NCBI RefSeq assembly: GCF_054482595.1
Contig: NZ_CM137008.1
Reading direction: 5' to 3' (one strand)
DNA length: 64,000 nt
This document shows, one piece after another, positions 15,001-36,000 of the stretch. Numbering within the stretch: position 1 is the stretch's first letter; each line of letters begins with the position of its first letter. The position numbers were made by a program.

Positions 15001-18000
15001 TAATACTGTGGAAGTCTTTCCTATTGGTATCGGCCAGGCTGGGCGAGAAACCCCGCGTAACTGGGTGACTACCGTTGAACGTAAACAAGAAGCTCCAACC
15101 TGGACGCCAACGCCGAACACTCGGCGCGAATATGCGAAACGAGGGGAGAGTTTGCCCGCATTTGTTCCTGCGGGCCCCGATAATCCCATGGGGCTGTACG
15201 CGATTTATATTGGCAGGTTGTATGCCATCCATGGTACCAATGCCAATTTTGGTATTGGGCTCCGGGTAAGTCAGGGCTGTATTCGTCTGCGCAATGACGA
15301 TATCAAATATCTGTTTGATAATGTTCCTGTTGGGACGCGTGTGCAAATTATCGACCAGCCAGTAAAATACACCACTGAACCAGATGGCTCGAACTGGCTG
15401 GAAGTTCATGAGCCGTTGTCGCGCAATCGTGCAGAATATGAGTCTGACCGAAAAGTGCCATTGCCGGTAACCCCATCTTTGCGGGCGTTTATCAGCGGGC
15501 AAGAAGTTGATGTAAATCGCGCAAATGCTGCGTTGCAACGTCGATCGGGAATGCCTGTGCAAATTAGTTCTGGTTCAAGACAGATGTTTTAAGAGCGTTG
15601 GTAATTAGAAAGCAAAAAGCCTGCTAGAAAGCAGGCTTTTTTGAATTTGGCTCCTCTGACTGGACTCGAACCAGTGACATACGGATTAACAGTCCGCCGT
15701 TCTACCGACTGAACTACAGAGGAATCGTGTGAACGGGGCGCATATTAATGGCAGTGCATGGTGATGTCAAAGGGTGAAATGCATTTTTTTGTTTGTTTGC
15801 TGTCAATTTCAACAAAGTGGTGAGCTTTCAATCTTATTGGGTAATGAACCATCGTGGTGCATACCCTCCTTTTATAGGGCAGGGGAACGCGACAGCTGAT
15901 TAAAGGAGCAAATGACGAATCTATCATAATCTCTTATTTGACAGTTGGTTAGCTTGTACATCAACGCCAAAATAAAACTGGCAAGCATCTTGCAATCTGG
16001 TTGTAAGTAATGGCGGCACTTGGGCCGATTCTTAAAAACCGGAGGCAACATGAACTTCAGACGCCTGAAATACTTCGTAAAAATTGTAGATATTGGTAGC
16101 CTGACCCAGGCTGCTGAAGTATTGCATATCGCACAACCAGCGCTCAGCCAGCAGGTTGCCACACTGGAAGGTGAGTTAAATCAACAACTTTTGATCCGTA
16201 CAAAGCGGGGCGTTACGCCAACAGACGCCGGAAAAATTCTCTATACCCATGCGCGGGCCATTTTACGTCAGTGTGAACAGGCCCAACTGGCGGTGCATAA
16301 CGTTGGTCAGGCATTATCGGGGCAAGTCTCGATTGGCTTTGCACCAGGAACCGCTGCGTCATCCATCACCATGCCCTTATTACAGGCGGTTCGCGCTGAA
16401 TTTCCGGAGATCGTTATCTATCTTCATGAAAATAGTGGTGCAGTGCTTAACGAAAAATTGATAAATCACCAACTCGATATGGCGGTGATTTATGAGCATT
16501 CCCCTGTGGCTGGTGTATCCAGTCAGGCTTTGCTGAAAGAAGATCTTTTTCTGGTAGGTACTCAAGATTGCCCGGGGCAAAGCGTTGATGTGAATGCTAT
16601 TGCGAAAATGAACCTCTTTCTCCCCAGTGATTACAGTGCTATTAGACTTCGTGTTGATGAGGCTTTTTCCCTACGGCGACTCACGGCAAAAGTTATTGGT
16701 GAAATTGAGTCTATTGCCACGCTTACCGCAGCGATTGCCAGCGGCATGGGCGTTGCAGTATTACCCGAATCGGCCGCGCGTTCGTTATGTGGCGCAGTAA
16801 ATGGGTGGATGTCACGCATTACCACTCCTTCCATGAGTCTCTCTTTGTCATTAAATTTACCCGCCAGAGCGAACTTATCGCCACAGGCACAGGCAGTGAA
16901 AGAGTTGTTAATGTCAGTGATTAGTTCTCCAGTGATGGAAAAAAGGCAGTGGCAATTGGTGAGCTAAGTGTTATATCGGAATGGAATAAGATGCGGGTTT
17001 TTATTATTTGTTATGCCGGGCATTAGACTTTAACAATAACGGGAAATCTGAACTGCCCGGAGTTTACCGTGAATTTCCAACAACTAAAGATAATCCGCGA
17101 GGCTGCACGTCAGGATTACAACCTGACAGAGGTTGCGAATATGCTTTTTACCTCACAGTCAGGCGTCAGCCGTCATATTCGGGAACTGGAGGATGAACTT
17201 GGCATCGAAATATTTGTTCGACGAGGTAAGCGACTGCTGGGCATGACTGAACCGGGCAAAGCATTACTGGTCATTGCAGAACGTATTCTGAATGAAGCCA
17301 GTAATGTTCGTCGGCTTGCAGACCTGTTTACCAACGATACGTCTGGCGTTCTCACTATTGCAACGACGCATACTCAGGCACGTTATAGCTTGCCAGAGGT
17401 CATTAAAGCTTTTCGCGAACTTTTCCCGGAGGTTCGGCTCGGGCTAATCCAGGGGACGCCACAGGAAATTGCGACATTGTTGCAAAATGGCGAAGCTGAT
17501 ATTGGTATCGCCAGCGAGCGTTTGAGTAATGACCCGCAGCTCGTCGCCTTCCCGTGGTTTCGTTGGCACCATAGTTTGCTTGTTCCACACGATCATCCCT
17601 TGACGCAAATTTCACCATTGACGCTGGAATCAATAGCGAAGTGGCCGTTAATCACTTACCGACAGGGGATTACGGGGCGCTCACGTATTGATGACGCATT
17701 TGCCCGCAAAGGTTTGCTGGCAGATATTGTATTAAGTGCGCAGGATTCTGATGTCATTAAAACCTATGTTGCTCTTGGGCTTGGGATCGGATTAGTTGCC
17801 GAACAATCCAGCGGCGAACAAGAGGAAGAGAATTTAATCCGTCTGGATACGCGGCATCTTTTCGATGCTAATACTGTCTGGTTGGGACTGAAGCGAGGAC
17901 AACTTCAGCGTAACTATGTCTGGCGCTTTCTGGAACTTTGTAATGCAGGACTGTCAGTTGAGGATATCAAGCGGCAGGTGATGGAAAACAGTGAAGAGGA

Positions 18001-33000: not shown

Positions 33001-36000
33001 TCGTGACGCGTCGAGAGCACCAGCCCGATAACAGGATTACCTGCTGCATCATGCGCAATAAAAGTCAGTGTGGCGGTTGAATGGGAATCCGCGCTCAACG
33101 TCTGGGTACTTAACGATACCGAGGAATCTTTCTGGCTTAGCGTAGGTGCCTGAACGACTACCATGCTCTGTTCACGATTCGAAAAATTGCCTTTGACATC
33201 TTCAGCGGTGACTTCAATCGGCCAGGTGTTATCGGTTTCTGGCGTACTGGTGAACCGGTACGCCGGCAGGGTAACCAGAATATCTTTACCCGTTGTAACC
33301 ACTTTACCACCGGCAGCTTCCAGAGCGGTGGCTTCGAAGTTATAGCCTTTCAGGGCATATTTGGTTTGTAGCGACGAAACCAGTGATTTCACTTCTCCTG
33401 ACTTCCCTGTCACGGGGTCTGTCAGGGTCAGGCGGACCAGTTCTTTTTTGCGATATTCCAGAACGATGTTGTTGTTGCGATCCACCAGATCATAACGGCT
33501 GCCTGCAAGGCTACGCCGTGCAGCGACTTCATTCGGGTCAAGCTGTTTCTGCATTGCGCTGCCAGGTTGCCAGGTAAAATCGACGGCAAAACGGGTGTCA
33601 TTTTCGCCCTGTTTACCCTGACGTTGCTCCGCGCTAAAGGTCATCAGCGGGAAGGGGGTATAGTTAAGTCCAGCGGTTATGGCATGAGGATTACTTTGCC
33701 GATCGTCTTTATCGAACAGGGCCACTTCATCGCCATAATACTGTTCATAGACCAGTTTACCGCCAAGGTGCGGCCAGGCGGGTAACCAGCCTTCTGCGCG
33801 TACATCCCAGCCATTGGCCGGGCGTGCTTCATAATCGTTGTCCAGTTCAGGTGCGCTGCGCCAGTTGGTCAGTCGCAAATAGCCGTTACTGCTTAATTTA
33901 AGATAGTCGCGCCAGTACTCCGCGCCAATGCCGGCGCGGGAGTGGTAACGGCTAAGGTCGTGGTCGAAAAAGAAGTTGATGCCCGACAACCATGTGGGAG
34001 TGAAATGACGCCAACCCAAGCCGTTGTTAATCTGGGTACGCTCGTCAGTACGGTGGAGAGTATGCTGGCTGAAAAAGAGATTATCAGGCGTTTCATACCA
34101 CGGATGGAGAAAATCGAACTGGGAGTTCTTCAGGCTAAAATCTTCATCCACGCCCAGCGTGATTCTTGCGGTACCGAAGCGGCTTAACCAGTCTGTCATT
34201 GCGCCTGAAGCCTGAGAAGAGGCCCATCCACGCGCCATATTTGCCGCTTGCTCGCTGTTCATATCTTCGGCGAGCAGAGACCCGATTTGCTGTGAAGTAC
34301 TGGCTATCTGTTGCTCGAGGTTGTCACTGCTATTACCCGGTGGCGGGGTTAATTTTTTTTCACTAACTTGTGCCGGGACATCCAGTTCATCACCCTGGCG
34401 GACATTATCAAAACCTCGAGCAAACGTACGAAACTGGTTGAGTTTGCGTAACTCAGCCACCGAAATACCGAAACGTTCGGCAACGCTTTGGGCCGATTCC
34501 AGCGCTCCAAGGGTGTAGGGCACCGTATTGGCATTTGCAATGGCAATTTGTGCAGGAACTGGTTGTTGGGTTGCGGCGTTTACCACACCTTGTGCTGCCG
34601 CAGCCATAGGGAACGCAAGTTGAGTTATCAGACAGATACCCGCAGTTAAGCGGCGTAGTTTAATTCCCATCCCGCATAAGATTTGTCGGTCATTTATTTT
34701 TTCTCCACTTCTCTTCTTCGTAGCCATGCTTACCTTCCCTGAACGAGCTAACATAAATGCGCCCTTTCTAGCACAGCGAAAAAATGTAAATCCTGATAGC
34801 AATATGATTGAAAATTAATAACTTTTCGTTAGGCAGTTTTGGGTGTGAGTTGCAAGAGGGGAGACTACTGAATAACTCAAGTTTTATAATCGAGGGGAAA
34901 ATGGTGATGGCGTTCATAGCAAAACGCCCTCAACCATAAAGGTCGAGGGCGCTTAAGATGTTAAAAATCCGCTATCCGTTAAAAAACAATGTTCAACTAA
35001 GGTCAGTAACATTGCGCTAAAAAAGCGAATTTTTAGAATTTGGCTCCTCTGACTGGACTCGAACCAGTGACATACGGATTAACAGTCCGCCGTTCTACCG
35101 ACTGAACTACAGAGGAATCGTGTGAACGGGGCGCATATTACTTAGCGGTACCTTGTCTGTCAACACTAAATTTCATAAGTCATTTCAATTGGTTAATTAA
35201 TCTGCAAAGTTGTTAATTAATGAACATTCGTCGCCGAAAACGAGTCTGTATCATTAGTGCGATGCAGTCTCTGCAAAGGATCTTGTTGATAAAATTGGCA
35301 GAAACGTTGCCACAATGAAGGGAAACGAGGAGCAAAAAGTTCTGGGGCGCTAAAGAAATATTCAGAAAGTACGGCAAAACATTCAGCAGGATCACTGGCA
35401 GCATAAGCATCAATGCTCGCCGCATTCTCGCCAACCAATTCGATTTCTTCCTGAATGTTGTTCATTGCAGCATGAAGATCGTGTTCCCAGCCAGCAACCT
35501 CACGCAACGGAATAAAGGGAACTCCGCTGGCGCGATCGCCGTTACGGGTGTCCAGCTTATGAGCGACTTCATGAATAATCAGGTTAAAACCAGATGCATC
35601 AAAAGAATCTTGTATATCCAACCAGTTCAAAACGATAGGCCCTTGCTGCCAGCTCTGACCTGACTGAACAATACGTTGGTTATGCACCAGACCGATATCG
35701 TCTTCCCATTCATCATCGACCACAAATGGCGCAGGATAAATTAAGACTTCATGAAAACCATCCAGCCATTCCAGTCCTAACTCCAGAACGGGTAGGCAAA
35801 ATAGAAGTGCTATCCGGCAGCTTCTTAATGAATCCAGTTCAAAGCCCTGTAAAGGAACAAGCCGCTTTTGCTGTAAAAAACGTTCGGCAAGAGTGACTAA
35901 TTTGCTTTGTTCCTGTTCCGTCAGACCCGTTAAAAGGGGGATCGATAGTGCTTCCTGCCAGGGAAGGGCAGTTTGATATGCTGATTCTTGTACTTTCCAG

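Follow-up and report, generated by a model that had tools for sequence, protein, structure and literature searches.

The four tRNA-Asn genes of an Escherichia coli chromosomal segment in their common, island-free arrangement

The window analysed here, a 64-kb stretch of chromosomal DNA, carries four tRNA genes that are almost certainly asnV, asnU, asnW, and asnT of the canonical E. coli tRNA-Asn(GUU) family, in the K-12-like majority arrangement and with their sites empty; no observation speaks against this assignment. The observation of the four copies in the initial annotation is real, was correctly interpreted, and is already well known, as nearly every E. coli has these four asn tRNA genes at the same chromosomal spot. 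Their identity over 85-111 nt gives the copies two well-known side roles, as attachment (attB) sites and as partners in mutual recombination. In this strain, to judge from the assembled sequence, neither island integration nor rearrangement at the asn genes has occurred.

The asn genes and their chromosomal neighbourhood

Four tRNA-Asn(gtt) genes were called by ARAGORN within 15648-35116, the same span as had been annotated initially, and each copy scores 72.6 bits against the Rfam tRNA family RF00005, the gathering score of which is 29 (Table 1). Comparison of the copies bears out the claim of identity, with a single 76-nt string that ends in GGAGCCA (the CCA being encoded) common to all four, and the presence of both orientations, which had also been remarked upon, with three copies on the minus strand and one on the plus strand. 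While the length of 76 nt holds for the tRNA itself, the repeats are somewhat longer than was stated: the asnU/asnW repeat measures 85 nt at 100% identity, those of asnV, asnW, and asnT extend over 104-111 nt at 94-99%, reaching into the 5′ leader/promoter side, the inverted pairs beyond asnU/asnW cover 104-107 nt at 95-96%, and the direct family covers 125 nt. The 25-nt and 17-nt patterns from the tRNA 3′ end occur four times each, against 0.00 expected from 100 shuffles, and are thus not due to chance; the median number of asn-matching places per E. coli genome is also 4. The four copies are probably kept identical by gene conversion.

Table 1. Features of the asn region and the adjoining prophage boundary in the window
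Feature	Coordinates	Strand	Remarks
terminator-like hairpin	15614..15641	-	predicted; directly 3′ of asnV
asnV tRNA-Asn(GTT)	15648..15723	-	3′ end toward ldtA; attB, empty; between ldtA and nac as in K-12
asnV promoter, sigma-70	15742..15770	-	predicted (TTGACA-17-TAATAT, then GC-rich discriminator); consensus scan and conserved alignment columns
nac	16050-16967	+	LysR regulator; between asnV and asnU
cbl	17069-18019	+	LysR regulator; between asnV and asnU
asnU tRNA-Asn(GTT)	18057..18132	-	3′ end toward cbl; attB, empty; ARAGORN and Rfam
yeeO	18140..19780	+	MATE efflux transporter; Pfam MatE E=6.9e-56
asnU promoter	18149-18176		predicted; consensus scan
asnW promoter	19834-19862		predicted; consensus scan
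asnW tRNA-Asn(GTT)	19881..19956	+	3′ end toward yeeN; attB, empty; sole copy in opposite orientation
yeeN	20408-21124	-	asnW-asnT block
amn	21467-22921	-	asnW-asnT block
shiA	23023-24339	-	asnW-asnT block
yeeL-like GT9 gene	24654-25706	+	asnW-asnT block
IS1	26004-26771		asnW-asnT block; in yeeJ 3′ end
yeeJ	26745 to ~34727	-	asnW-asnT block
asnT tRNA-Asn(GTT)	35041..35116	-	3′ end toward yeeJ; attB, empty; usual HPI site
mtfA	35217..36014	-	between asnT and serU; Pfam Peptidase_M90
serU tRNA-Ser(CGA)	36108..36197	+	prophage attachment site
prophage tyrosine integrase	36250..37275	-	PHROG integrase E=6.4e-54; Pfam Phage_integrase

The copies match asnT (b1977), asnW (b1984), asnU (b1986), and asnV (b1989) of K-12 MG1655 with no base difference, and their order, relative orientation, and flanks (mtfA, yeeJ, yeeN, yeeO, cbl, nac, ldtA) are also the same. 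With ORFs called in the window and gene names taken from homologous annotated loci, the order reads ldtA-asnV-nac-cbl-asnU-yeeO-asnW-yeeN-amn-shiA-yeeL-yeeJ-asnT-mtfA-serU, which agrees with the order annotated in K-12 and in strain ECO2947. The inverted asnU/asnW pair brackets a 1.7-kb segment with yeeO, the start of which is placed by PGAP at ~18293, and the asnW-asnT interval forms a 15-kb block (20408..34727). Collinearity with K-12 MG1655 extends over 11.8-36.2 kb of the window (cobUST-ldtA ... mtfA-serU), the positions 11825-26003, 26772-30623, and 31519-36212 of which align by BLAST to K-12 2,066,159-2,043,453 at ~98%. This collinearity, together with the lack of an integrase or an orphan att repeat at the asn genes, upholds the description of the surrounding core as intact. 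It has to be noted that two minor departures from an intact core had been missed, namely the IS1 element, whose insertion 8 codons ahead of the yeeJ stop changes the final 8 residues of YeeJ, and the ~0.9 kb of extra Ig-like repeats that yeeJ carries in comparison with K-12. The window further differs from K-12 in having no IS5H next to cobU and in having a prophage at serU, where yodB is found in K-12.

That prophage is lambdoid. Its integration at serU had been proposed from the sequence and is borne out: its integrase begins 53 nt 3′ of serU, the K-12 collinearity stops at 36212, 15 nt past serU, and phage modules are present (integrase, exonuclease, replication protein, Q, terminase, portal, and major head protein), with DicF and sok RNAs in the prophage region. 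The serU 3′ end was not found again anywhere in the window, past the end of which, at 64000, the prophage continues. This prophage and the IS1 in the yeeJ 3′ end are the only mobile elements nearby.

Each asn gene would be transcribed as a small unit by itself, from a near-consensus sigma-70 promoter and with a short leader, and the asnV unit would close at the predicted hairpin terminator. These predicted units are consistent with the published leaders of asnT/U/V/W, which are 6-8 nt long (PMC7049720); the predicted promoters and terminator are matches to a consensus, and such matches are no more numerous than in shuffled sequence.

Recombination between the asn copies

Exchange of asnW with asnV, asnU, or asnT would give an inversion, and exchange of the latter three with one another would give a deletion. 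Such exchange probably proceeds via RecA-dependent homologous recombination or via an integrase, and the two give the same junctions if the crossover falls inside the tRNA. The comparison of synteny with other strains, which the initial annotation had put forward as a check, was made by building recombinant junctions in silico and seeking full-length matches to them in 5,426 complete E. coli genomes; the window itself is uninverted. The view that the asn copies are substrates for inversion and deletion is supported by recombinant junctions in natural genomes: the asnU x asnW inversion, in which yeeO is flipped, was found in 32 (0.6%), the asnV x asnW inversion in 265, the asnW x asnT inversion in one (strain ET5, right junction), and a deletion-type asnV-asnU junction in 35. 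In every genome examined the breakpoints lie inside the asn repeats, with overlaps of 85-118 nt.

The left junction of the asnW x asnT inversion (yeeO-asn-inverted yeeJ upstream) was matched by 0 of the 5,426 genomes, the query having missed ET5 because that junction is occupied there by an island together with a partial tRNA repeat of 24 nt. The corresponding query for asnV x asnW matched SE15 alone among the 5,426 genomes; the other strains with this inversion escaped it, as they have pks between ldtA and the tRNA. As a clean asnV x asnW inversion SE15 was rejected, since it carries 1,083 bp of yeeO together with the tRNA in two copies, in inverted orientation. Nor could all 35 asnV-asnU junctions be accepted as deletions: in 2016C-3878 nac-cbl has been relocated by ~15 kb, to the far side of two integrase islands arranged back to back, and a clean deletion was confirmed in AH20K059 only.

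The asnV-asnW inversion has been published (PMC8209727, PMC8461471, PMC6458436), and pks-positive B2 E. coli (configuration 1A of Auvray et al. 2021, PMC8209727; class Ic of Wami et al. 2021, PMC8461471) carry the same four tRNAs and intervening genes as the window, from which they differ in that the ~4.3-kb asnV...asnW block is inverted and pks is located at the copy with the asnW promoter. For two minor rearrangement classes, the flip of yeeO alone and that between asnW and asnT, no paper was found. Ou et al. 2006 is reportedly the work cited for the inversion in CFT073.

An alternative to treating the asn repeats as passive substrates, although an unlikely one, is that they constitute a dynamic invertible switch, possibly driven by an integrase, that has a functional output, the candidates for which are the locking of pks in place and an altered orientation or expression of yeeO or of the tRNA genes. 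In its favour, the asnV-asnW inversion was found and PCR-validated within cultures of UTI89 (PMC6458436), the pks (colibactin) island adjoins the inverted block in three of the three asnV x asnW genomes examined, with Auvray et al. suggesting that the inversion stabilised pks (PMC8209727), and yeeO alone is flipped in two of the examined backgrounds, which are 1.7% apart. Against this, the asnU x asnW and asnW x asnT inversions are infrequent, and the UTI89 inversion is independent of recombinase overexpression (PMC6458436). Moreover, exchange inside the tRNA leaves each copy its promoter and downstream flank, so that no obvious change of expression follows, and in Santai, which has the yeeO-only flip, the 9-kb locus shown contains no integrase, so that no island recombinase is needed there. 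It is doubtful that the asn repeats form a recurrently used, possibly reversible invertible system beyond the published asnV-asnW/pks case, and one that would enable this strain to switch. Such a system may take in both the yeeO-only flip and the 15-kb asnW-asnT flip and, if it were real, the inversions would have functional consequences, for example the immobilisation of islands or a changed orientation, with respect to replication, of yeeO and the tRNA genes.

Occupancy of the asn sites

The initial annotation had also called the asn genes classic island sites. This agrees with the literature, in which island integration at asn tRNA genes, including that of HPI and pks, has been published (PMC8209727, PMC7545054), and with what is seen in other genomes: HPI integrase and ybt genes are located at asnT in one ST131 genome, pks integrase and clb genes at the copy with the asnW promoter in other strains, and further integrases beside asnV and asnT elsewhere. 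A literature search on a clb relic next to ibrA yielded nothing relevant. The asn 3′ ends are attB sites for the P4-type tyrosine integrases of these islands (HPI, pks, and others). In the case of the Yersinia HPI, as cited in PMC8209727, the asn copies are interchangeable attB sites that offer the same 3′-terminal sequence to the P4-type integrase; the window differs from it in having no integrated island at any asn copy. The HPI of E. coli is reported to have become fixed at asnT through deletion of its distal repeat (PMC8209727), and it occupies asnT in pks-positive B2 strains (PMC8209727, PMC8461471) while being absent from the window.

Among the window ORFs, none beside any of the four asn copies encodes an integrase, and the 17- and 25-nt sequences of the tRNA 3′ end were found nowhere in the 64 kb but in the four genes. 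Since there is no adjoining integrase and there are only four 3′-end copies, all four asn sites are empty. The corresponding empty-site (native) junctions are present in 4664 of 5426 genomes for asnV (86%), 5176 for asnU (95%), 4974 for asnW (92%), and 2664 for asnT (49%), and in occupied genomes the native-junction matches end exactly at the tRNA 3′ end.

It is very improbable that one or more of the copies is instead an attL/attR duplicate made or carried by an island, with its site occupied or scarred. From 19957 on, the 160-200 nt that follow asnW share ~73-74% identity with the P4-type asn islands of two other strains at their tRNA-proximal end, a likeness that takes in the 5′ start of the integrase and could be an ancient scar. 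However, this flank is shared at 93-99% by all the E. coli loci examined, that of K-12 among them, which makes it core sequence now, and all four copies are full-length and at their K-12 positions, with neither an integrase ORF nor an orphan 3′-end repeat to accompany them. The reading of the asn copies as island duplicates is thus largely refuted.

Least credible is that the window has itself undergone inversion or deletion between asn copies and that its intact look is misleading: such rearrangements do occur in other genomes, but the reading is refuted for the assembled consensus sequence, as collinearity with K-12 is kept, with no change of orientation, through all four asn genes, its four native junctions all represent the majority arrangement, and positions 503-26003 are 99.945% identical to strain ECCNB12-2 (NZ_CP033635.1), which has the same gene order, is matched at 100% by three junction queries, and, as it lacks both the IS1 and the serU prophage, is a close relative only.

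The asnT-asnV segment here shows a well-known E. coli hot spot in its ordinary state, free of islands and without rearrangement, and as such it matters little for this window. With neither HPI nor pks present, there are no yersiniabactin or colibactin genes at the asn sites. The junction census may serve as a reference for the occupancy of each asn site and for the frequency of recombination between each asn pair.

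The asn cluster and its K-12-like surroundings

The four tRNA-Asn(GTT) genes asnV, asnU, asnW and asnT are called by ARAGORN exactly where the initial annotation had placed them, three on the minus and one on the plus strand, and on extraction, each read in its own orientation, they yield one and the same 76-nt string ending in CCA, with every copy scoring 72.6 bits against the Rfam tRNA model. Identity extends past the mature tRNA for asnU and asnW (100% over 85 nt); the inverted pairs with asnW are 95–96% identical over 104–107 nt, and asnV and asnT 94% over 125 nt, mainly on the 5′ leader and promoter side. 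In 64 kb there are exactly four occurrences of the 25-nt and of the 17-nt 3′-terminal tRNA pattern, where shuffles give an expectation of 0.00. The asnT, asnW, asnU and asnV genes of K-12 MG1655 have the same sequences, and complete E. coli genomes contain a median of 4 asn-matching places in the junction searches, which makes these four copies the normal complement. This is the canonical asnT/W/U/V cluster, in the ancestral arrangement and with no site occupied.

Features of the window and their coordinates
Feature	Position	Strand	Remark
clbO-like segment	5567-5825		~83% identical to internal part of clbO
clbP/clbQ-like segment	5828-6169		~87% identical to clbP 3′ end and clbQ 5′ start
ORF	6169-7401		PAPS reductase in ECCNB12-2 annotation
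asnV, tRNA-Asn(gtt)	15648-15723	-	ARAGORN
asnU, tRNA-Asn(gtt)	18057-18132	-	ARAGORN
asnW, tRNA-Asn(gtt)	19881-19956	+	ARAGORN
asnW-yeeN spacer	19957-20140
IS1	26004-26771		complete, 768 bp
IS1 target duplication	25995-26003 and 26772-26780		AGCAAACCC, 9 bp
yeeJ	26745 to about 34727	-
Extra yeeJ repeat DNA	30624-31518		609-bp period; copies at 30262, 30871, 31480
asnT, tRNA-Asn(gtt)	35041-35116	-	ARAGORN
serU, tRNA-Ser(cga)	36108-36197	+	ARAGORN
Prophage tyrosine integrase	36250-37275	-
DicF RNA	40623-40674	-
sok RNA	46264-46439
Q antiterminator gene	49114-49809
tRNA cluster Met-CAT, Lys, Thr, Gly	50019-50328		immediately 3′ of Q gene; ARAGORN

Near-consensus promoter-like sites are predicted 5′ of each copy, with TTGACA-17-TAATAT upstream of asnV and asnW and TTGACA-16-TAAGAT upstream of asnU found by scanning, and TTGACA/TAATAT hexamers likewise seen upstream of asnT by alignment. 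These predictions agree with the published leaders of 6–8 nt for asnT/U/V/W (PMC7049720), and a hairpin terminator is predicted for asnV.

The cumulative GC skew climbs along the plus strand (1-64000), which suggests that this is the leading strand, in agreement with the K-12 position of 2.04–2.06 Mb on the left replichore; if so, asnV, asnU and asnT would be head-on to replication, with only asnW co-directional.

Window 11825-36212 aligns with K-12 2,066,159-2,043,453 in a single orientation at ~98%, and the order cobU-cobS-cobT-ldtA-asnV-nac-cbl-asnU-yeeO-asnW-yeeN-amn-shiA-yeeL-yeeJ-asnT-mtfA-serU is that of the annotations of K-12 and of ECO2947, the best-matching strain. In contrast to K-12, IS5H is absent between cobU and yoeG, where the K-12 flanks join directly at 11825-11828, and yeeJ carries ~0.9 kb of extra Ig-like repeat units, making it ~300 codons longer. 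The IS1, which is present at the matching position in ECO2947 but absent from K-12 and ECCNB12-2, interrupts yeeJ 8 codons ahead of its stop, changing the last eight YeeJ residues from YATCYKNL to GDAANLLI.

Empty asn sites, an occupied serU and island-like remnants

None of the asn genes in the window has an integrase ORF next to it, and no orphan copy of the tRNA-Asn 3′ end was found in its 64 kb, so all four asn attachment sites are empty. The core around them is intact, as had been proposed, its differences from K-12 within the asn span being the IS1 and the extra yeeJ repeats. The proposal that the prophage used serU instead is likewise borne out: K-12 collinearity stops at 36212, 15 nt past serU, and the integrase is followed by an exonuclease, DicF RNA, a replication protein, sok, the Q antiterminator, four tRNAs, terminase, portal and major head protein. 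The element (36212-64000) is a lambdoid prophage at serU whose far end lies beyond 64000; there is no stx-sized gap ahead of its lysis genes.

The asnW-yeeN spacer shows ~73–74% identity to P4-type asn islands of strains STW0522-31 (locus L010) and 2016C-3878 (L014), at their tRNA-proximal end with the 5′ start of the integrase, and may, by this similarity, be an ancient island scar; all other compared E. coli loci that contain the spacer, K-12 among them, share it at 93–99%.

Upstream of the cluster, 5567-6169 is, to judge from its resemblance to clb genes, what is left, in diverged form, of a colibactin-type island, and the adjoining ORF is possibly ibrA-like. Among 5,426 complete E. coli genomes, ~205 contain the same relic; ~290 genomes match it at 80–90% identity, the listed matches being annotated clbP/clbQ, i.e., real pks; no paper describing the relic was found in a literature search.

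Recombinant asn junctions in natural genomes

The 5,426 genomes were searched with 1,076-nt queries (500 nt of flank on either side of the tRNA) for all native junctions and for those that recombination between two asn copies would create, a genome being counted if one place covered at least 80% of the query. The native junctions of asnV, asnU, asnW and asnT were found in 4,664, 5,176, 4,974 and 2,664 genomes, respectively. In genomes lacking a native junction, the match mostly ends at the tRNA 3′ end. The copies do serve as island integration sites elsewhere, as had been noted: the HPI integrase with ybtS/X/Q lies at asnT in an ST131 strain, the pks integrase with clbS/Q/P/O adjoins the tRNA in examined genomes, and other integrases occur there at asnV and at asnT.

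The copies had also been proposed as substrates for inversion or deletion, to be checked by synteny with other strains, and the recombinant junctions indeed occur in complete genomes. The left junction of the asnU × asnW inversion was found in 32, and in O157:H16 Santai and TC24, which differ by 1.7% over 7 kb, the gene maps have yeeO flipped between the two tRNAs. The right junction (nac-asn-yeeN) of the asnV × asnW inversion was present in 265 genomes, with the three examined (MS20654, FDAARGOS_1261 and HH45) reading pks-int-asn-yeeO-asn-cbl-nac-asn-yeeN; its left junction matches only one, SE15, because pks intervenes in the other inverted genomes. In the SE15 locus (L005, NC_013654.1; 7497-14999), the asnV...asnW block is inverted, 1,083 bp (yeeO 3′ part and tRNA) is present twice, in inverted orientation, and the right junction contains 166 bp of DNA without a match. 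SE15 is a complex inversion-duplication and not a simple reciprocal inversion.

The asnW × asnT inversion is represented by its right junction in one genome (ET5) and by its left junction in none. In ET5 the 15-kb yeeJ...yeeN block is flipped, and an island with AlpA, DUF6387 and H-NS-like genes ends (locus L009, ~4780) in a 24-nt partial asn 3′ end adjoining the yeeJ upstream region, which indicates that the inversion took with it an island located at asnT.

The ldtA-asn-yeeO junction of the asnV-asnU deletion type was found in 35 genomes. AH20K059 has a clean nac-cbl deletion with three asn copies. The region of 2016C-3878 (L012/L014, NZ_CP029747.1) reads ldtA-asn-yeeO-asn, two back-to-back integrase islands and asn-nac-cbl, cbl being followed by a type VI secretion island and by no tRNA, and is a complex, multi-step relocation; at least seven genomes, of which 2016C-3878 is the one examined, agree in having a junction identity of 97.4% and four asn-matching places. 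All genomes examined have their breakpoints inside the asn repeats, which coincide with an 85–118 nt overlap of the two aligned segments.

Mechanism and relation to known asn recombination

The exchange would follow one of two routes that leave the same product in the sequence, RecA-dependent homologous recombination or the action of an island integrase on a pair of tRNA att sites. The 9-kb Santai locus shows no integrase, which favors homologous recombination for the yeeO-flip class. With a crossover inside the tRNA, every copy still has a promoter and a downstream flank after inversion, and the events are therefore expected to be nearly neutral.

HPI is known at asnT, pks at asnW and occasionally at asnU or asnV, and islands also at serU and cobU (PMC7545054, PMC8209727). 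The asnV-asnW inversion has been described (PMC8209727; Wami et al.), and in UTI89 an inversion between asnW and asnV was found to arise within cultures and was validated by PCR (PMC6458436). No paper on the yeeO-only or the asnW-asnT flip was found in the literature search; both extend the same principle by a small step. The observation of the four copies is thus confirmed and its interpretation supported, and the asn cluster, its island sites and asn recombination are established biology, already known.
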